A DNA stretch of 64,000 nucleotides from Promethearchaeota archaeon (GCA_048938105.1 JBHLMN010000003.1:96001-160000); one strand, 5' to 3'; shown: positions 6,429 to 38,507, counted from the first letter of the stretch. The notes: a model not told the origin generated them from the letters alone. Made by a program: numbers and translations.

Positions 6429-6983
6429 ATGAACTATGACGATGAGAAGGCAAAATATCATCTTAAAATCATTGTTTGTGGCGCTGGAGCAGTGGGAAAA
6501 ACATCAATTGTAAGACGTTATGTAGAAGACAAGTTTGAATTCAACTACTTGCTTACAATAGGTTTAGACCCAACCAATCGTCGAATTGAAATTGATGGAT
6601 TTCTTGTTAATTTGGTTATTTTTGATGTGGCTGGCCAAAAACGCTTTCAAACGTTACGAGATATCTTTTTCAGGAAAGCTAATGGTGCTATTTTAGTTTT
6701 CGACCTTACACGACAAGAAACTGTTGATGAACTTTATGAATGGAAAGAACAGATAGACAAGCGCCTAGGGAAAAACCATATCCCGATGATTTTAATTGGT
6801 AATAAATCTGATCTTGAAGATATAATACAAATTGATTATAGTTATCTCGAAGATCAAGTTATTCCAGATTTTACACCAATTAAATATCTAGAAACTTCAG
6901 CGTATCAAGATAAAAATATACGTGAAACATTTTACTTTTTAACCAAAGAAATTCTAATACAACAAGGTATTATTTCATCTTAG
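6429..6983 (+). CDS. Rab-like small GTPase
   Basis: G1 GAGAVGKT, G2 TIGLD, G3 DVAGQ, G4 NKSD, G5 ETSA; no C-terminal Cys prenylation motif. Confidence 0.92.
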   Translation: MNYDDEKAKYHLKIIVCGAGAVGKTSIVRRYVEDKFEFNYLLTIGLDPTNRRIEIDGFLVNLVIFDVAGQKRFQTLRDIFFRKANGAILVFDLTRQETVDELYEWKEQIDKRLGKNHIPMILIGNKSDLEDIIQIDYSYLEDQVIPDFTPIKYLETSAYQDKNIRETFYFLTKEILIQQGIISS

Positions 6984-24818: not shown

Positions 24819-25607
24819 TTAGAGAATTAAATTTCGTAATTGTTGAACCATTCCCTCTACTATACCAATTGTAGTAGCTGCCGAACATTCTGGATTGGCA
24901 TCAACAAGTAATAACAGACCCTCACCAAGAATATAAACAAATATGTTTGAGACACCTGAAACAGCCAAAAAAAATGTTGGTTTTTCGAGGTGTGCTGCAA
25001 ATGCTCCTCGAATAGCTCGCACTGCAGCTGGTAATATTTCTGCATCCATTTGATTTACAATGACTGCGCCAGTGAAAGATGACACACAAGCACCTCGGAC
25101 TGCATCGTCACTGAGAACCCAAGCTTCAAGATGTTCTTCAACCTCCCGTTTCATGGATTCTGACATATAACGACTTTCACCTGCCATAACGGTTTGAATA
25201 GCTTCATTAAATTCCTCCTTTTCCACACCTGATATACGAATCGTTCTTTTACTGAGTTTATCGGCAAAATTTCCAAGAAAGAGTGTCATTAACGTTCTCA
25301 ATTTAAATTCAATATCAAGTAATGAGGCAGAAGCGGAAGTAATTAGGGAAAACATTCCTTCTGGTCTATTAATCCCAGCAATACGCATTGATGCAAAATC
25401 GACGTGAAATAATTGGCCCTCCTCTATCGATTCTTCCTCTAATCCTTGTGAGATGGCAAAAGCTGAATCCAGAAGTACATGGATTTTTGCAGGAGTAAAA
25501 GCTTTTACAGTTTGTGAACCACGCAAATCTTTGCTGATAAGCAGTTTTCCTGAGGAATGAAAAACAAAGAATGCTAAAAAAGTCTCCAGCTCATCGAACG
25601 AGACCAA
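24819..25607 (-). CDS. Longin-like + Roadblock/LC7 fusion protein
   Basis: N-terminal FFVFHSSGKLLISK...FLGNF longin pattern; C-terminal AVRGACVSSFTGAVIV...GLLLLV roadblock pattern; 4 nt after a GTPase gene. Confidence 0.7.
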   Translation of the reverse strand: MVSFDELETFLAFFVFHSSGKLLISKDLRGSQTVKAFTPAKIHVLLDSAFAISQGLEEESIEEGQLFHVDFASMRIAGINRPEGMFSLITSASASLLDIEFKLRTLMTLFLGNFADKLSKRTIRISGVEKEEFNEAIQTVMAGESRYMSESMKREVEEHLEAWVLSDDAVRGACVSSFTGAVIVNQMDAEILPAAVRAIRGAFAAHLEKPTFFLAVSGVSNIFVYILGEGLLLLVDANPECSAATTIGIVEGMVQQLRNLIL

Positions 25608-25611
25608 TTTC

Positions 25612-26136
25612 TTACTCTCCTAGAATTAGCTGGCCCATCTGGACAAAAGCTTCTTGAACACGAGATCCTGTTTTCGCTGAAGTTGAAAAAAATTCTTGAG
25701 CATGGAAACGCTCTAGAATCTCTTCTTTACTAGCAGGCAATTTTCCTTCTGCAATATCTTCTTTATTACCAAGAACCATCACTTTGGCATTTGGACTTTG
25801 TTCGTTAATGTCTGCTCGCCATCGATCTAATTTTTCATATGTGGGGTTTGGTCTCGTTAAATCGAATACTAAGAATACTCCATGTGCCTTCTTCAAATAC
25901 AGATGACGAAAATTAGTGAAACCTGATTGACCTGCAACGTCCCAAATCTGAAAAGTAAGCTCTCGCTCGTTGATGTTCACTGTTTTTGAGAGAAAATCTA
26001 CTCCTAAAGTGATCTGATAACCTTCTTTGAAGAAATCATCAACATATCGTTTAATTAAGGAAGTTTTACCTACCTCTGGTTCTCCGACCAATAATAATTT
26101 GAAGGCGAACTTGCCTCCTTTAGCTTTCTTAGACAA
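25612..26136 (-). CDS. Rab-like small GTPase
   Basis: GEPEVGKT, YQITLGVDF, IWDVAGQ, GNKED, STSAKTG. Confidence 0.93.
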   Translation of the reverse strand: MSKKAKGGKFAFKLLLVGEPEVGKTSLIKRYVDDFFKEGYQITLGVDFLSKTVNINERELTFQIWDVAGQSGFTNFRHLYLKKAHGVFLVFDLTRPNPTYEKLDRWRADINEQSPNAKVMVLGNKEDIAEGKLPASKEEILERFHAQEFFSTSAKTGSRVQEAFVQMGQLILGE

Positions 26137-30566: not shown

Positions 30567-31442
30567 ATGATTAATGTGCAAACTTCTATTATGCAATTTA
30601 CAGAAAGAGACCCAATTGAACTTCTAGGAATTGCATTTGTAGCAATAGGTATTATCTTGTTCCTTTCTTTTGGATTTCGCTTGTTATTTTCTTATAAACG
30701 AACGGAAAAAAAGCAAACATTATATCTTGCTTTAGAATTCATCTTCGGAGGACTAGGAATGTTCTTCCTGCTCGTAGAGCAGGTGATTCTAATGTTGTCT
30801 GTTGAAGTTATAGCTACTGCTCCAGATGTAATTACTGATCCGCCTATCCCTCCGATGCAGAGTTTTTTTCAGTATTCAGGTTTTGATGTATTTAGTGCAG
30901 GATGGGTTGGAGCAGCTTTAGCTTGGATTTCTTCTGGAATTGCAATCATAGCAGCAGTTTTTTTTGTAGTCTCATTTTTTCCTACCATGGGTAGGAAATA
31001 TTTAATTCCTCCTATCATTCTTATATTAGTCTATTTAGCTCTGATAATTATCTCGCCTTTTCAGTGGAATTTTTCTGGTTCAGATTGGAGCCCTGAGCAC
31101 GATCCTACGATAAACATTATCCTTTGGATCCTTTTCTTTATTCCTCTCTGGAGTGTCGCATTCCTCTTCCTATATCTAACCTTCAGTTTATTCCGTAGAG
31201 GTTCTCCTAGTTGGCGAAGATTGTGTTGGATATTTGTTAGTCAAACACTCCTATCAATTGCATTCACTATCGAGATTGTTAATCCATCAATGATAACAGA
31301 GTATTTGATTCCAGCTCTTATAGGTAGCGAAGGAGTTATCGCAACTATTTCCCGGTTTTTCCTAATGATCTATCCTATGTTAATGTGGATAGGTGTACTG
31401 ACACCAAGTTGGGCTAAAGGTATGTTAGGGGTAACTACCTAA
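30567..31442 (+). CDS. Stand-alone 7TM membrane protein (HisKA_7TM-like sensor)
   Basis: Seven hydrophobic segments; ends GVLTPSW; no cytoplasmic output domain. Confidence 0.7.
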   Translation: MINVQTSIMQFTERDPIELLGIAFVAIGIILFLSFGFRLLFSYKRTEKKQTLYLALEFIFGGLGMFFLLVEQVILMLSVEVIATAPDVITDPPIPPMQSFFQYSGFDVFSAGWVGAALAWISSGIAIIAAVFFVVSFFPTMGRKYLIPPIILILVYLALIIISPFQWNFSGSDWSPEHDPTINIILWILFFIPLWSVAFLFLYLTFSLFRRGSPSWRRLCWIFVSQTLLSIAFTIEIVNPSMITEYLIPALIGSEGVIATISRFFLMIYPMLMWIGVLTPSWAKGMLGVTT

Positions 31443-31483: not shown

Positions 31484-32572
31484 TTAGAGATCTCCCATCC
31501 AGTCTAAAAATCTCGCAGATACTCGTTGTAAAAGTAATTCACGTATTAAAGGATTCCGTTGAGCTCCAATCTCTGCAGCTACTTCAACTAATGATGAATC
31601 ATACTTTTTTTGAATTTCATTTATTCTACTTTCTTTTTCAGCTTCTGGATATGAAAAAGCCTCCACTAACATACCAGCAACCTTTAAGAGTTTTTCAGTC
31701 GATTCTTTCACTATAGGAGTTGGATTATCTAGGTTTTTTCGCAGTTCTTTAATTAGATTCCTTGAATACTTGCAAGGTTCACCATTTTTAACCTGCTTTT
31801 TATCCATATCAATTAAAACTTCATTAGGATAATTTTTGACTAGATCTTTCCCTATACCAATGATATCAGCATATGCAGGGTCAATTATCTCTCTTGTAAA
31901 GCTCACTTTCCTCAAGTTCACATGTGGGACGAGCATATCCAAACTGTGAACCATTAAATCAATTATTATATCAGATCCACCAGTAACAAAAACAGACTTA
32001 CTTCTAAATAGTGCTCCTAAAACACGATCTTCATTTTTTCGAACTTGAGAAAGAAAGAACTCTATACTCCCACCTTCTTTTTTTTCGGAATAAATTACTC
32101 TCTTCTCAATGATTTGTATTTCTGCAGTAGCCTCTCTTTCTGTTACCCGCCAATTGGTAAGAGCATTACCTAATTCCTTGGGAAAACTCAAAGCTCCAGT
32201 ATAAACATAGTTCTGTTTGATTCTGTTAGCTAAGTCCTCAGCTTTAAACTTAAGGAATGGAACCTTATTGTAGAGGAAGACTTGCTGATCTAGAGGTAAT
32301 ATATAAGATAAAGAAGCAATACATGTGGGTTCCGAGGCATTTGCCTGACGAATTTGGAATAAAAGAATGAAACCTAGTTTATTCAACCCAGAAAAGGGAA
32401 GGATAGCCTCAGCAGATTCCAAGTCTGTAGTACTCATCATTGTTAAGGTCATTTGCGATCTACGGGCAATATGAGAGGCCTCTTCCTGACTAATTCCTCC
32501 TGAGAAAAATACTGGAACAGAAAGCCCTTTTTGTTTATCAAAAACGCTAAATAAAATACCTCTATCCATCAA
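31484..32572 (-). CDS. DENN-like protein (uDENN/longin + cDENN + helical dDENN)
   Basis: ILFSVFDKQKG NPRL2/folliculin-type longin start; VLGALFRSKSVFVTG..MVHSLDMLVP..ADIIGI..VLIDMDKKQV cDENN-like core. Confidence 0.65.
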   Translation of the reverse strand: MMDRGILFSVFDKQKGLSVPVFFSGGISQEEASHIARRSQMTLTMMSTTDLESAEAILPFSGLNKLGFILLFQIRQANASEPTCIASLSYILPLDQQVFLYNKVPFLKFKAEDLANRIKQNYVYTGALSFPKELGNALTNWRVTEREATAEIQIIEKRVIYSEKKEGGSIEFFLSQVRKNEDRVLGALFRSKSVFVTGGSDIIIDLMVHSLDMLVPHVNLRKVSFTREIIDPAYADIIGIGKDLVKNYPNEVLIDMDKKQVKNGEPCKYSRNLIKELRKNLDNPTPIVKESTEKLLKVAGMLVEAFSYPEAEKESRINEIQKKYDSSLVEVAAEIGAQRNPLIRELLLQRVSARFLDWMGDL

Positions 32573-33416: not shown

Positions 33417-35012
33417 GTGATACTTAGAATGAAAAAAAGAAAATACAGTACACCACTCGCAGAAGCAATACACATAGCTTATACGAGAGGTGAGGGTGAT
33501 GAAGATTTAGAGTCACTTGTACTTGTTGACAATGATAACAATCCGATTGGTCGTTTTATGCCTAATGATGCTTTAATTTTTGCGAATATTAGAGGTGAAC
33601 GAGAGGTTGAATTGACTCAAGCGCTTACATCCAAAAAATTTAGTCATTTTCAAACGGTGCCTCTCGATCTCTGTGTTACGACAATGATTCAATACCATCC
33701 TGATCTCCCTGTAAATATTGCATTTCCTCCTACAGCTAATCTTAACAATACATTGACAGAATTCCTCAGTGAACATGGGATGCGAGTATTAAAATGTGTT
33801 GAAAGTGAAAAGGCTATTCATTTAACTTATTTCTTTAATGGAAAACAACATACTCAATTCAACAACGAGGATCGCCTAATTATTCCTTCCCATGAAACAG
33901 AAAATTTAGCAACTTTTCCAGAAATGAAATCTCACGAAGTAGCCAGCGAGACTATCAAAGCAATGAAAAAAGGGAGATATAACTTAATTGTTACGAATCT
34001 ATCTCCATGTGATGTCATGGGACATATTGAGAATAAATCTGTAGTTGGTAAGGCAATACGTACGGTTGATGAGGAACTAGGGAATATAGTAGGTTCAGCG
34101 ATTATTTCTGGGTACACGGTTTTTGTAACGGCGGATCATGGAGTTGCAGAATCATGGCTTTATCCTGATGGAGCTATTGATACTGGGCATACTTCTAATC
34201 CAGTACCTTTTTTATTAATTTCTGAAAAGATTAATGAGCTGAAATTAAGAAGTGATGGTTCTCTGGTTGACATTGCTCCAACTATTTTAGAAATCATGGG
34301 ATTAGAAAAACCACTGGAAATGGAAGGAAAAACTCTCCTGAAAGACACGATGCAATATAAGAGCCAAAGAGTTCTTCTTTTAATCTTAGATGGATGGGGA
34401 TATAATCCGAATTCATATGGAAATTTATTCCTAGAATTTGGTACCCCAAATATGGACAATTTAAAAATTAAATACCCTTTTACAACTCTTATAGCCTCTG
34501 GGCCTCGTTTAGGTATGCCAGAAGGAACTGTTGGTAATAGTGAAATTGGTCACCTTCATATGGGGGTAGGGAGACGAGTAATTAGCGATCGTGTTAAGAT
34601 ATTTGAAGCCATTGATACAGGAGAATTTTTTCAGAATTCTGCTTTTCTAAAGGCTATAAACTATGCGAAGAATAATGAAACTTCATTGCATCTGCTAGGG
34701 ATTATTAGCTTCTATAGTTCCCATGGCTCAATTAAATATCTTGAGGCACTCATGGAGCTTGCCAAAAGAAAGAAAGTTGAAAAAGTTTATTTACATGGAA
34801 TGCTTGGCCGACGAGGTGAAAAACCTGAATCAGGAGCCCATTACGTAAATCAACTCGAACTTAAAGCCAAACAAATGGAAAATACGAAAGTAGTTTCCAT
34901 CATTGGTCGTCATTGGGCACTTGATAGAGAAGAGAATTGGGATAGAATTGTAAAAACATATGAAATGTTAGTAAAGGGTAAGGGAAGACAGATAGAAGAT
35001 ATAAATTCTTGA
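33417..35012 (+). CDS. gpmI: 2,3-bisphosphoglycerate-independent phosphoglycerate mutase, circularly permuted
   Basis: All iPGM motifs present (ILDGWG, GNSEIGH, DVMGH, TADHG, GHTSNPVP, DIAPT, GRHWALDR) but in permuted order. Confidence 0.88.
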   Translation: MILRMKKRKYSTPLAEAIHIAYTRGEGDEDLESLVLVDNDNNPIGRFMPNDALIFANIRGEREVELTQALTSKKFSHFQTVPLDLCVTTMIQYHPDLPVNIAFPPTANLNNTLTEFLSEHGMRVLKCVESEKAIHLTYFFNGKQHTQFNNEDRLIIPSHETENLATFPEMKSHEVASETIKAMKKGRYNLIVTNLSPCDVMGHIENKSVVGKAIRTVDEELGNIVGSAIISGYTVFVTADHGVAESWLYPDGAIDTGHTSNPVPFLLISEKINELKLRSDGSLVDIAPTILEIMGLEKPLEMEGKTLLKDTMQYKSQRVLLLILDGWGYNPNSYGNLFLEFGTPNMDNLKIKYPFTTLIASGPRLGMPEGTVGNSEIGHLHMGVGRRVISDRVKIFEAIDTGEFFQNSAFLKAINYAKNNETSLHLLGIISFYSSHGSIKYLEALMELAKRKKVEKVYLHGMLGRRGEKPESGAHYVNQLELKAKQMENTKVVSIIGRHWALDREENWDRIVKTYEMLVKGKGRQIEDINS

Positions 35013-35023
35013 TAAACATTCTA

Positions 35024-35455
35024 TCACGAATTATGATTCGATACTGTTTTGATGAAATTGGTAATTTGAAATAAAAGCTTTGGAATACTATTATATGAGT
35101 GAAGTGTGAGATTTGGAGAGGTGTTTCCCAAAATCATTGCTGATATAACTCTGTTTCCTTCATAAACTGCTAATACGGGTTTATTGAGATTTAAGGCTGT
35201 TGCTATTTCATAACCAACTCCTAAGCTGGGAATTGATACTTCAGCTATCATAATATCACATATTTGCAGCCAATTTATATCTTGGGTGAAAATCTCTGCA
35301 TTAGACATTGAATTTTCAATTTCAATCACATTGGGTGAAGCAACATGATGAGTTAAAACTTCGTGGCCATTGCTTTGGAGATGGTCATAAATTAGTGCAT
35401 AATTAGCCTGCAGCTCACGGCCTCCACGAATCGACGCGGATAGATAGATCTTCAA
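35024..35455 (-). CDS. Nucleoside 2-deoxyribosyltransferase / DNPH1-like dNMP N-glycosidase
   Basis: KIYLSASIRGGRE, DINWL..CD..IAEV..PSLGVGYE, SAMILG. Confidence 0.88.
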   Translation of the reverse strand: MKIYLSASIRGGRELQANYALIYDHLQSNGHEVLTHHVASPNVIEIENSMSNAEIFTQDINWLQICDIMIAEVSIPSLGVGYEIATALNLNKPVLAVYEGNRVISAMILGNTSPNLTLHSYNSIPKLLFQITNFIKTVSNHNS

Positions 35456-36234
35456 TTAATCATCTCCTCTTTCTTTTTCGCATTAAGTAAAAGCTGACAT
35501 AATTCTCGTACTTTCGTATCAGCCGTCTCTTGAGCTAATAAATTGAGTATTTTCATTAATTGCGCTTTTTCAACTAATACTATTTGATTTTTCTTACAAA
35601 AATCTTTTATCTGACGATCTAGAATAGGATTGGAATGTAAAAGAGCTGCAAGAATTTGGAAAACTGTATTATCTTTGCGGCCTTTTCTTAGAGCTTTAAG
35701 AGCCTTATTAGGAGATTTATGGAAGTTTCCAGAACGATAGACTGAAATAATTACAGGATACCAATCTTTGGCTCGTGTTTTCAGCCAATCCTGAATTTCC
35801 TTAATATCATTAATTCTTTCTTCCCAGTGCTTTTTAAATTGCTCATCAGGAAATCCTAACTCAGGCCACGCTTGAATCTTGGCCAATAATTCTACATATT
35901 CCTGGTAACGCGAAATTTGAGCCTCTCTCTCTCGGATACTAAATTCTAACGTCCCTAGAATAAACCCAGGAGAAAATTCTTTCAAGCTAGATTCAAGGCT
36001 TTCTGTAAATATAATTGCTTTACCTTGGTTTAGAATTTCACGATTTTTCTCTAATACTTGTTTAGATTTCATAGGAATTTCTTTTGGGTGGTGATCAAGA
36101 TAATCTAACGCCCAAAAAAGGAACATAGCTTCAAGTTGAAACTTTGTAGAGCGTATAAAATTCGCTAGATCTTCTGGCTTTTCGTTAAGAAGAAGCGCTT
36201 TTACCTGTTCAAAATCAATTTTGGGATCAACCAA
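35452..36234 (-). CDS. Hypothetical all-helical protein
   Basis: 260-aa ORF whose stop overlaps the next start; GAAGGA upstream. Confidence 0.7.
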   Translation of the reverse strand: MVDPKIDFEQVKALLLNEKPEDLANFIRSTKFQLEAMFLFWALDYLDHHPKEIPMKSKQVLEKNREILNQGKAIIFTESLESSLKEFSPGFILGTLEFSIREREAQISRYQEYVELLAKIQAWPELGFPDEQFKKHWEERINDIKEIQDWLKTRAKDWYPVIISVYRSGNFHKSPNKALKALRKGRKDNTVFQILAALLHSNPILDRQIKDFCKKNQIVLVEKAQLMKILNLLAQETADTKVRELCQLLLNAKKKEEMIN

Positions 36235-36302: not shown

Positions 36303-38507
36303 TCAACCAAGTAACATTCGGTAGACATCTTTAGGATCATGTTCACCAGGAGCTCGGATTTTGAAGCGAATCTCAACCTTCTGTCCAGGTTGAACCTCAT
36401 TATAAATCCATTTCATTGCCTTACCATCTTTCACAGAAGAATGCTCCTCAAATCCAACGGGTGGATCTTCCTTTGTATCAGACACTAATTCGAAACCCTT
36501 GGGCAAGAAATCACTTACTTCTACATTTTTGATAACAGCAGTACCCTCATTTTCACCTCGAATGACAATTTCATACTCATTCAGGGCCTCACTGGAAGTT
36601 GAACGCACCATCTTACCAATTTTTAATTTACGGCGTTCATGTATAACGGTGATTGGACCTGCTTCTGCTTCAGCTGTAACAGGTTTAACTGGGGGAAAAA
36701 TATTTGCCAATACTGTGATATTTCCCAGAAATTCATCATCTGGTGTAGCAGTAGCGAAAAACGGATAAGTAATCAGGAGTTCTTCATCTTGTTTCAGTGT
36801 TCCAATATCCGAATATTCGAGACGTTCTATTGTTATAATCAAATTACCATCCGTCACTTCCAAATTATAATCATCGTCTGAAACCTGTTTAGCACCTTTT
36901 ATAATCGAAATAACCTCTTTAGTTGGAGGTTCAAAGCCTTCTGGAATCTGATCTTGGAGTTGTAGATATTCAACATCTGTACTTCCAGTAGATCGAATAA
37001 CATTTTCAGTTTTAACCTCTGTACGCCTATAAGAAGGTATTACAAGAGGTGAGAAAGACTTTGAGACTTCAATATCCATAAATCGTAGTGCATAACCAGG
37101 GAGAGTACATTCAGCTACTATCTCAGCATCATATAGATATTTTACTGATAAATCCAGTTCACGACCAAATTGAGGAATAACTCCATCTTCTTCGACAGTG
37201 ATTGTCCATGGATCAAGACTGAATGTCTCACCAGGGTCAATAGACCGTTCCTCCTCAGGAAAATCACTGCCTAACCATTCTAGTCGAATATTTCCGTCTT
37301 CAAGAGGACCTTCATAAATCCTAACTTCCTTCAAATCCATCTCAAACTCGGAAGTGTTTTCTAATTCAAATTTACAGTCAAAATCACCAGGGTTCTCTTC
37401 CTGCTCATCGCGGGAGATAAATTGGAATACTGATGAAGAACCTGTAATTGTCTCTAGATTGATACCAGAAAGGCTTTTTTCAAAACATCTGTATGTAACA
37501 ACCGTATCTCCAACCTTATATGGTTCTGCTGTGTCTTCTGGTAGTGTAACTCGCATTTCGCAACTAGCCTTCGTTGTAGAATTTGCTGGAATTTCATCAA
37601 CTTTCCATTGAATGAATTCTCCTTCTTTATTGAATTCCCCATTTTCAGTTTGAAAATTTTCTACAATGGTAGAAGGATCAGAAATATGTTTTCTTAGAAC
37701 TACTTCTGTTAAAGACCAATCAAATTCATTAGTCAGTTCGATTGTGAAATGTATTCCTGTTTCAGTACCTCGAGCGAAGGTAGGAGGGGATTCTGGCTTG
37801 TCTAGATCCCAAAACTCTTCTTTAATTTTTACTCGTGGTGCTTCTACTTGGAAATCAAACTTTACACCTTTTGTTTCCTGCGCTGAGAGCTCTTTGATTC
37901 CAAATGAGTTACCAAAGACCACGATTTCTTGATCTTCACTACGATCGAAGGTTACTTCGTCTACACCTTCTAGGAAGGCATCTATCGCCCAAATTCGATC
38001 ATTTTTACCCATATTTGTGACACCGATTTCCCCCTTTCCTTGTAAAGATTCAATGGGTTCATCATTATCACCTATTAGATTGTTATCCTTATCAATTCGA
38101 TAGGTTAATGTTTCCCGCAATTTAACATTAAGCCCAGCTTGTTTTGCTTCATGTTCTTCTAAGGCACGAAAATCCTCCCTAGCTCTTGCTGCATCTTCTT
38201 CCGAAAAATCAGTTTCAGGAAGAGGAGTTCCTGATTCTCGAATGGCTTTGGCAGCATCACTTGCCTTATTTCTAGTACCTCGATCCTTGTCGTTTTTCCC
38301 GACCCTTTCAAGAACTTCAACAGCCTCTGGGTCGTTTAACTTAACAAGAGAATCAATGGCTTCTTTTCGTACATCTTTTTCATCATCTTGTTCGATAACC
38401 TTAAGCAGTGCTCGAAGAGCAGCTTTTGTACGAGTATTTCCCAGTGCTTCTGCTGATTCTTTTCGCTTATTTTTATCACTACTTTCCAAATTTTTCATTA
38501 CGGACAT
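36303..38507 (-). CDS. HEAT-repeat + mu-homology-like + Ig/DUF11-like beta-sandwich protein (coat/adaptor-like)
   Basis: N-terminal HEAT repeats (VRKEAIDSLVKL); then LNVKLRETLTYRID..QGKGEI..LTEVVL..GEF..IQWKV..VTYRCFEKSLSG; then VSK.F/D.LPKGF Ig units; no signal peptide. Confidence 0.65.
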   Translation of the reverse strand: MSVMKNLESSDKNKRKESAEALGNTRTKAALRALLKVIEQDDEKDVRKEAIDSLVKLNDPEAVEVLERVGKNDKDRGTRNKASDAAKAIRESGTPLPETDFSEEDAARAREDFRALEEHEAKQAGLNVKLRETLTYRIDKDNNLIGDNDEPIESLQGKGEIGVTNMGKNDRIWAIDAFLEGVDEVTFDRSEDQEIVVFGNSFGIKELSAQETKGVKFDFQVEAPRVKIKEEFWDLDKPESPPTFARGTETGIHFTIELTNEFDWSLTEVVLRKHISDPSTIVENFQTENGEFNKEGEFIQWKVDEIPANSTTKASCEMRVTLPEDTAEPYKVGDTVVTYRCFEKSLSGINLETITGSSSVFQFISRDEQEENPGDFDCKFELENTSEFEMDLKEVRIYEGPLEDGNIRLEWLGSDFPEEERSIDPGETFSLDPWTITVEEDGVIPQFGRELDLSVKYLYDAEIVAECTLPGYALRFMDIEVSKSFSPLVIPSYRRTEVKTENVIRSTGSTDVEYLQLQDQIPEGFEPPTKEVISIIKGAKQVSDDDYNLEVTDGNLIITIERLEYSDIGTLKQDEELLITYPFFATATPDDEFLGNITVLANIFPPVKPVTAEAEAGPITVIHERRKLKIGKMVRSTSSEALNEYEIVIRGENEGTAVIKNVEVSDFLPKGFELVSDTKEDPPVGFEEHSSVKDGKAMKWIYNEVQPGQKVEIRFKIRAPGEHDPKDVYRMLLG

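Follow-up and report, generated by a model that had tools for sequence, protein, structure and literature searches.

Through their control of Rab, Arf, and Rag GTPases, DENN-module proteins govern membrane traffic and nutrient signalling in eukaryotes. Folliculin (FLCN) with FNIP1/2 is a GAP for RagC/D (structures 6nzd, 6ulg, 8dhb, and 3v42), and SMCR8 with C9orf72 and WDR41 is a GAP for Arf/Rab GTPases (6lt0, 7mge, and 7o2w). DENND1A/B, for their part, are exchange factors (GEFs) for Rab35 (3tw8 and 6ekk). Eukaryotic FLCN-family proteins act as heterodimers of paralogues (PDB 6nzd and 6lt0), and to our knowledge every characterised DENN-module protein binds a Ras-superfamily GTPase. The signature of the longin GAPs FLCN, SMCR8, and NPRL2 consists of an arginine finger and of a GP motif that precedes strand b2, and both are present in some Heimdallarchaeia longins; DENND proteins are without the GP motif, and C9orf72 retains it together with a WD motif (PMC12290439).

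Liu et al. (bioRxiv 10.1101/2020.10.19.343400; Nature 2021) described DENN proteins from Asgard archaea, among them longin+DENN proteins of Heimdallarchaeia that resemble folliculin, and also reported an operon consisting of a LAMTOR1-like roadblock protein, a Rab-like GTPase, and a DENN protein. A later preprint counts DENN domains among the known Asgard components. Asgard longin-DENN proteins are an already published kind, and the novelty of the one studied here was overrated in the original prediction because both Asgard DENN proteins and FLCN-like longin+DENN proteins are in the literature.

We analysed a 64,000-nt stretch of a Promethearchaeota archaeon assembly (GCA_048938105.1 JBHLMN010000003.1:96001-160000; referred to here as the window), which has a G+C content of 32 to 39%. 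The longin-DENN open reading frame lies on the minus strand at positions 31484 to 32572 and encodes 362 aa as listed, with a TTG start at 32572 and an ATG as the next codon. The true start is probably this ATG at 32569, because the orthologues begin at the corresponding Met (M-D/N-R-G) and the ESM Atlas record begins at residue 2; the coding sequence would then span 31484 to 32569 (361 aa; stop codon, 31484 to 31486). Residue numbers given below are counted from the TTG at 32572.

A word-indexed search returned 55 orthologues (~360 aa) at 49 to 91% identity, the closest of which come from MAGs carrying a Hodarchaeales or Heimdallarchaeota label; an orthologue in the closed genome CP070695.1 is 75% identical. 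When 1.84 billion cluster representatives were searched exhaustively with phmmer, 100 scored E ≤ 1e-3, the majority having lengths of ~340 to 380 aa and identities of 20 to 35%. Among 82 genomes of the class, an orthologue (≥49% identity) was present in 19 of the 20 genomes of the genus-level group to which we refer as g1, relatives at 31 to 33% identity were found in the sister family f2, and homologues at 22 to 28% identity were found in families f4 (31/31) and f7 (12/12). The open reading frame is a real, strongly conserved gene, far beyond chance. Public runs listed for the locus comprised sediment and mangrove DNA and no RNA. A promoter/terminator scan at the gene gave background-level signals; the scan is of a bacterial type and does not apply to archaea.

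As a single query, the protein had no match in Pfam-A (a copy without PF27109), NCBIfam, or PDB sequences. A profile of 45 family sequences (A3) matched human SMCR8 (E value, 3.3e-4), with the longin and DENN stretches colinear. SMCR8 residues 721 to 756 aligned to profile positions 183 to 218 (i.e., the DENN stretch), and the SMCR8 longin stretch had an i-Evalue of 110 inside this significant whole-sequence match. The E value against SMCR8 was 0.06 with a narrower family profile. Profile A3 also matched the Loki longin 8yqg (E value, 7.5e-5). Several orthologues carried a precomputed PF27109 assignment, which is SMCR8_C in Pfam 38.1 (name per ESM Atlas); we found no mention of PF27109 in the literature. 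Moreover, PF11704 (Folliculin) was assigned to 23% of the protein's own ESM Atlas cluster, and distant family members had sub-threshold Folliculin_C, C9orf72-like, and Longin matches.

A first AF2 model, based on 40 orthologues, had a pLDDT of 75.7; a model based on 75 sequences including distant members had a pLDDT of 87.8 and a pTM of 0.84. The three-part layout originally read from the sequence (i.e., longin, alpha/beta core, and helical tail) was seen in both models. The predicted longin (uDENN; residues 1 to 121; minus strand, 32210 to 32572) has the order b1-b2-a1-b3-b4-b5-a2, with strands at residues 5 to 12, 17 to 24, 53 to 60, 65 to 76, and 83 to 93 and helices at residues 29 to 43 and 94 to 121; it was delimited by the two AF2 models, VIA-align, and the profile. 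An inter-lobe linker (residues 122 to 169; minus strand, 32066 to 32209), assigned from the two models and conservation, leads to the cDENN alpha/beta core (residues 170 to 262; minus strand, 31787 to 32065), which rests on VIA-align and the SMCR8 profile alignment. Helices follow the core at residues 268 to 361 in the AF2 model. They make up the predicted dDENN helical region (residues 263 to 340; minus strand, 31553 to 31786), into which the VIA-align alignments extend as far as residue ~341 to 346, and a conserved C-terminal amphipathic helix (residues 341 to 362; minus strand, 31487 to 31552), defined by the orthologue alignment and the AF2 model. All of the strings quoted in the original prediction are present, namely ILFSVFDKQKG (residues 6 to 16), VLGALFRSKSVFVTG (184 to 198), IDLMVHSLDMLVP (204 to 216), ADIIGI (235 to 240), and VLIDMDKKQV (252 to 261). 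The cDENN core, whose motifs are GALFR..VFVTG, VHSLD..VP, DP..ADIIGI, and VLID.DKK, contains the most conserved blocks of the family, with H209-S210 and D231/D236 (in DP..ADIIG) among the conserved residues.

In a Foldseek search against the PDB, the top 24 matches were all DENN-module or longin proteins. FLCN (E value, 1.4e-8), C9orf72 (3.5e-8), and DENND1B (1.2e-7) were among them, as were DENND1A, DENND10, FNIP2, SMCR8, the FLCN C-terminal domain, the Loki longin 8yqg, and Lst4; the first AF2 model gave the same matches. VIA-align, which is independent of Foldseek and was run against 48,161 representative PDB chains, placed the full-length model on FLCN 6nzd_H (Z, 16.2 over 307 aa; aligned from residue 3). 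Further Z scores were 13.5 for DENND10, 12.9 for SMCR8, 12.8 for DENND1A, 12.6 for C9orf72, and 10.3 for FNIP2. The N-lobe matched the Loki longin 8yqg_B (Z, 16.7; rmsd, 2.6; 142 aa) and the Lst4 longin 4zy8_C (Z, 13.2). The lack of a cDENN lobe had been named beforehand as the observation that would speak against the assignment; the C-lobe (model residues 165 to 341) instead matched the FLCN C-terminal domain 3v42_B (Z, 14.1; rmsd, 3.4; 172 aa), and the best unrelated C-lobe fold, a secretion ATPase, reached a Z of 7.5. Both a longin (uDENN) and a cDENN core with a helical dDENN, by which a DENN module is recognised, were found in the model. Global rmsd values against solved DENN proteins were large (12 to 25 Å) because the predicted orientation of the lobes differs from that in every solved DENN protein; each lobe by itself superposed at ~3 Å. 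The predicted structures and the SMCR8 profile match agree with the structural part of the original prediction: the protein has longin, cDENN, and dDENN parts in a compact, full-length arrangement, and its relatives are folliculin, SMCR8, C9orf72, and DENND1.

Two segments combine strong conservation with low model confidence. The linker segment at residues 151 to 170 has a column identity of ~0.8, yet residues 149 to 163 were modelled with low confidence. The C-terminal helix, from N-P-L-I onward, is also of low confidence though among the best conserved parts of the protein; N340-P341-L342-I343 is invariant in the orthologues, and P341 is retained by no fewer than 90% of the 75 sequences in the family alignment. 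Both segments may fold upon partner binding. A homodimer prediction (two copies with alignment A1), run without controls, scored 0.00, which counts neither for nor against self-association.

Compared with the described systems, the protein most resembles FLCN in overall structure and has the same longin-then-DENN order. It differs from FLCN in sequence (~11% identity), in length (362 aa versus 579 aa with long insertions), in having no finger arginine and a degenerate GP, in the modelled orientation of the lobes, and in having no FNIP-like neighbour. SMCR8 is the only eukaryotic protein reached by the sequence profile, and SMCR8_C is carried by orthologues of the present protein; however, SMCR8 has an arginine (R147) without a counterpart here and comprises 937 aa with large disordered inserts. 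FNIP2/Lst4 and C9orf72, which are non-catalytic partners, have a longin and a DENN part without an arginine finger, as does the protein described here. DENND1A/B have a uDENN-cDENN-dDENN organisation of similar size (~360 to 380 aa), and we found no sequence-level link to them. The Lokiarchaeota Roadblock-Longin protein (8yqg) is the best single-domain match (17% identity), but it joins a roadblock domain to the longin and has no DENN lobe. The Asgard DENN proteins of Liu et al. are the nearest in kind in that they come from the same phylum and class, share the longin + DENN organisation, and are hypothetical proteins in MAGs; the LAMTOR1-like/GTPase/DENN operon is, however, not present at this locus, where the corresponding genes are not adjacent.

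Neither element of the longin-GAP signature was found in the protein. At the place of the GP motif, in the loop before b2, stands G16-L-S-V-P20 (minus strand, 32513 to 32527; located by the orthologue alignment, with the motif as defined in PMC12290439); G16 and P20 are conserved, and a strict GP occurs in only 9 of 52 orthologues. The position of the arginine finger falls in the b4-b5 loop, N77-A-S-E-P-T82 (minus strand, 32327 to 32344), which has no arginine. SMCR8 R147 falls on profile position 78 in this loop, and hhalign (probability, 28%) placed the A-R-G of P0155, an FLCN-type protein of the same genome (see below), on S79/E80; these alignments are weak, mutually consistent, and in agreement with the secondary structure. 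None of the 52 orthologues has R-G/A in the loop. Among 54 distant family members, GP was present in 33 and R-G/A, typically as R-G-G, in 13. The f7 homologues have GP and R-G-G, the f4 homologues have K-R-S-P and no GP, and the f2 homologues (same order) have GP and no Arg. Judged from these alignments, the finger-less state is a character of the Hodarchaeales orthogroup, given its occurrence in all 52 orthologues versus the arginine-bearing f7 and f4 homologues.

An AhpC/TSA peroxiredoxin gene lies 232 bp upstream of the longin-DENN gene. On the downstream side is a convergent gene (plus strand, 30567 to 31442) whose 291-aa product is a multi-pass membrane protein that belongs to no known family; three of four relatives have a homologue of it in the corresponding position (33 to 52% identity). 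The original prediction had pointed to two GTPases of the window as possible clients. The open reading frames in question (6429 to 6983 and 25612 to 26136) are indeed Ras-family GTPases (Pfam Ras E values, 1.4e-41 and 4.7e-40, respectively), the one at 25612 being the GTPase nearest to the longin-DENN gene (5.3 kb) and the other lying 24.5 kb away, in a genome with ~72 Ras-superfamily matches. Four relatives whose longin-DENN orthologues are 50 to 74% identical share the order DENN, (membrane protein), peptidase M3, 880-aa protein, Ras GTPase, and 262-aa protein; on the other side of the DENN gene they have a HEAT protein, a 260-aa protein, a nucleoside deoxyribosyltransferase, and (iPGM/AhpC/DUF1405). 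We read this conserved block as inherited gene order and not as an operon, because it mixes in housekeeping genes and is missing in f2, f4, and f7, where we did not find it. No GTPase operon was seen at the longin-DENN locus, at the four orthologous loci, or at two paralogue loci. The same was true of ten homologous loci in other families, one of which (L030) has a divergent Arf-like gene. The proposed tie to the two GTPases was thus not borne out, there being no operon, considerable distances, and many other candidates.

Several features of the surrounding genes were recorded along the way. The GTPase gene at 25612 to 26136 lies 4 nt upstream of, and is co-oriented with, the gene for the 262-aa protein (pair, 24819 to 26136; minus strand), which has no Pfam, NCBIfam, or PDB-sequence match. 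The pair is kept in four related genomes (GTPase, 74 to 87% identity; 262-aa partner, 67 to 75%), where a GH57 glucanotransferase gene usually comes next. Because alignments to this GTPase begin only at residue 17, its listed TTG start may be too early. The 260-aa protein (35452 to 36234; minus strand), also without a family match, is encoded beside the nucleoside 2-deoxyribosyltransferase in all four relatives (36 to 67% identity). The iPGM gene (33417 to 35012; plus strand) is shared with one relative (L001), whereas the three others lack it at this position; the precomputed Pfam order of the L001 iPGM orthologue has Metalloenzyme and iPGM_N repeated. In f4, the homologues at all six loci (L021, L022, and L027 to L030) are followed by same-strand open reading frames of ~252 to 261, 95 to 104, and 212 to 242 aa, which at L022 scan as a Sir2-family deacetylase, an acylphosphatase, and a GTP cyclohydrolase II. 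The gene that divergently adjoins the f4 homologue at L030 encodes an Arf-like GTPase of 309 aa.

Besides the longin-DENN protein, the family has two members in this genome, P0153 and P0154; neither gene adjoins a GTPase gene. P0153 (L009:7894-9039, G000:C36; 381 aa) is 26% identical to the longin-DENN protein and has a longin with a GP motif; its orthologue matches begin at residue 8 to 19, so that the true start probably lies downstream of the listed one. P0154 (L010:7863-8933, G000:C20; 356 aa) has a different N-terminal domain, whereas its DENN lobe and that of P0153 are 55% identical; its gene is adjoined by a convergent gene for a 596-aa beta-propeller protein. At E ≤ 1e-20, P0153-type genes were not found in ~6 of 20 related genomes that have a longin-DENN orthologue, and this incomplete co-occurrence weakens the idea of an obligate heterodimer with P0153. 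A third protein, P0155 (G000:C52, L031:7245-8594; minus strand; 449 aa), has a canonical FLCN-type longin in which EHGP and EARGKN occur and which scores 28.5 bits, above the cut-off, with Pfam Folliculin; this longin had no meaningful match among PDB sequences. Before the P0155 gene lies one for a 164-aa roadblock/LC7 protein and after it one for a 461-aa protein that has no family assignment; the gene for an Arf-like GTPase of 311 aa is ~4.6 kb away. Pfam Folliculin-type longin matches also occur at G000:C52:42106-42354 and 37541-37741, inside open frames of 8857 aa and 1541 aa, respectively.

Probably, to argue by analogy with its characterised relatives, the protein is an FLCN/SMCR8-family longin-DENN module without an arginine finger that would work as a GTPase-binding GEF or platform and not as a folliculin-type GAP alone. 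It would be a cytosolic protein representing one Asgard "eukaryotic signature" DENN orthogroup throughout this Hodarchaeales family. Like the characterised DENN-module proteins, it would bind a Ras-superfamily GTPase, on which it would act as a DENND-type exchange factor or as a non-catalytic platform comparable to FNIP/C9orf72; a folliculin-type GAP in its own right it would not be. Of the original prediction, the structural part was upheld, and the functional part found no support in the present analyses; the arginine finger of the FLCN-type GAPs is missing from all 52 orthologues. A catalytic FLCN/SMCR8-type GAP with a longin arginine finger is indeed highly improbable: FLCN and SMCR8 are the closest relatives in structure and sequence and G16 is conserved, but the loop arginine is missing throughout and a strict GP is rare among the orthologues. 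The basic residues that occur irregularly near the b4-b5 loop, such as R74 of close orthologues or a K/R that some sequences have at position 82, might conceivably include a non-canonical catalytic residue. We tentatively put forward that the protein may be a monomeric DENND-type GEF whose cDENN lobe would remodel the switch regions of a Rab-like GTPase, in the way that DENND1B acts on Rab35. Consistent with this possibility are the C-lobe matches to DENND1A/B and DENND10 (Z, 12.8 to 13.5), the absence of the arginine finger as in DENND GEFs, the compact, single-chain model with its high pTM, and the location of the most conserved blocks in the cDENN core, whereas both sequence and structure lie nearer to FLCN and SMCR8 than to the DENND proteins.

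It is rather unlikely that the protein serves as the non-catalytic subunit of a heterodimeric longin GAP, i.e., a counterpart of FNIP, C9orf72, or NPRL3 working with a finger-bearing paralogue or with P0155. Such a role would fit a genome that encodes P0153 (with GP), P0154, and the canonical FLCN-type P0155, as well as the heterodimers formed by eukaryotic FLCN-family paralogues; against it, the P0153 type was not found at E ≤ 1e-20 in ~6 of the 20 related genomes, and no candidate partner is encoded next door. A scaffold of DENN fold with no GTPase client, like DENND10 in the Commander complex or the bacterial TagF-like regulators, seems improbable, because all of the close structural relatives are GTPase regulatory and Asgard genomes are rich in small GTPases, even though DENND10 ranks high among the C-lobe matches (Z, 13.5), TagF was also retrieved (Z, 7.4; Foldseek E value, 3.8e-3), and the two conserved low-confidence segments suggest docking onto a partner. 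As for the GTPases at 6429 to 6983 and 25612 to 26136, it is very unlikely that the protein regulates these in particular. Both are Ras family members and the DENN-to-GTPase (25612) order is kept in four relatives, but the synteny extends to unrelated housekeeping genes and is lost in f2, f4, and f7. The GTPase at 25612 has a more obvious partner in the product of the 262-aa gene 4 nt away, and the distant one at 6429 is only ~33% identical to the syntenic GTPase. Without an adjacent GTPase gene and with so many Ras-superfamily matches in the genome, the two GTPases have no special claim and are arbitrary candidates. The finger-less FLCN/SMCR8-family module acting as a GTPase-binding GEF or platform is the reading that we favour.

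The advance is incremental in that such proteins have been published already. The longin-DENN protein is nevertheless a practical target for biochemistry and structure work, because it is compact, soluble-looking, highly conserved, and found in almost all genomes of its Hodarchaeales family, and its missing arginine finger points to exchange or platform activity over folliculin-type GAP activity. The Hodarchaeales, which are often placed nearest to the eukaryotes, may already have split the longin-DENN family into finger-bearing and finger-less members, with the latter being FNIP/C9orf72-like partners or DENN-type GEFs for one of the ~70 small GTPases. We consider such a split doubtful; if it is true, the division of labour between FLCN and FNIP and between SMCR8 and C9orf72 would predate eukaryogenesis. 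Archaeal DENN relatives of this kind bear on the origin of the eukaryotic GTPase-regulating machinery.
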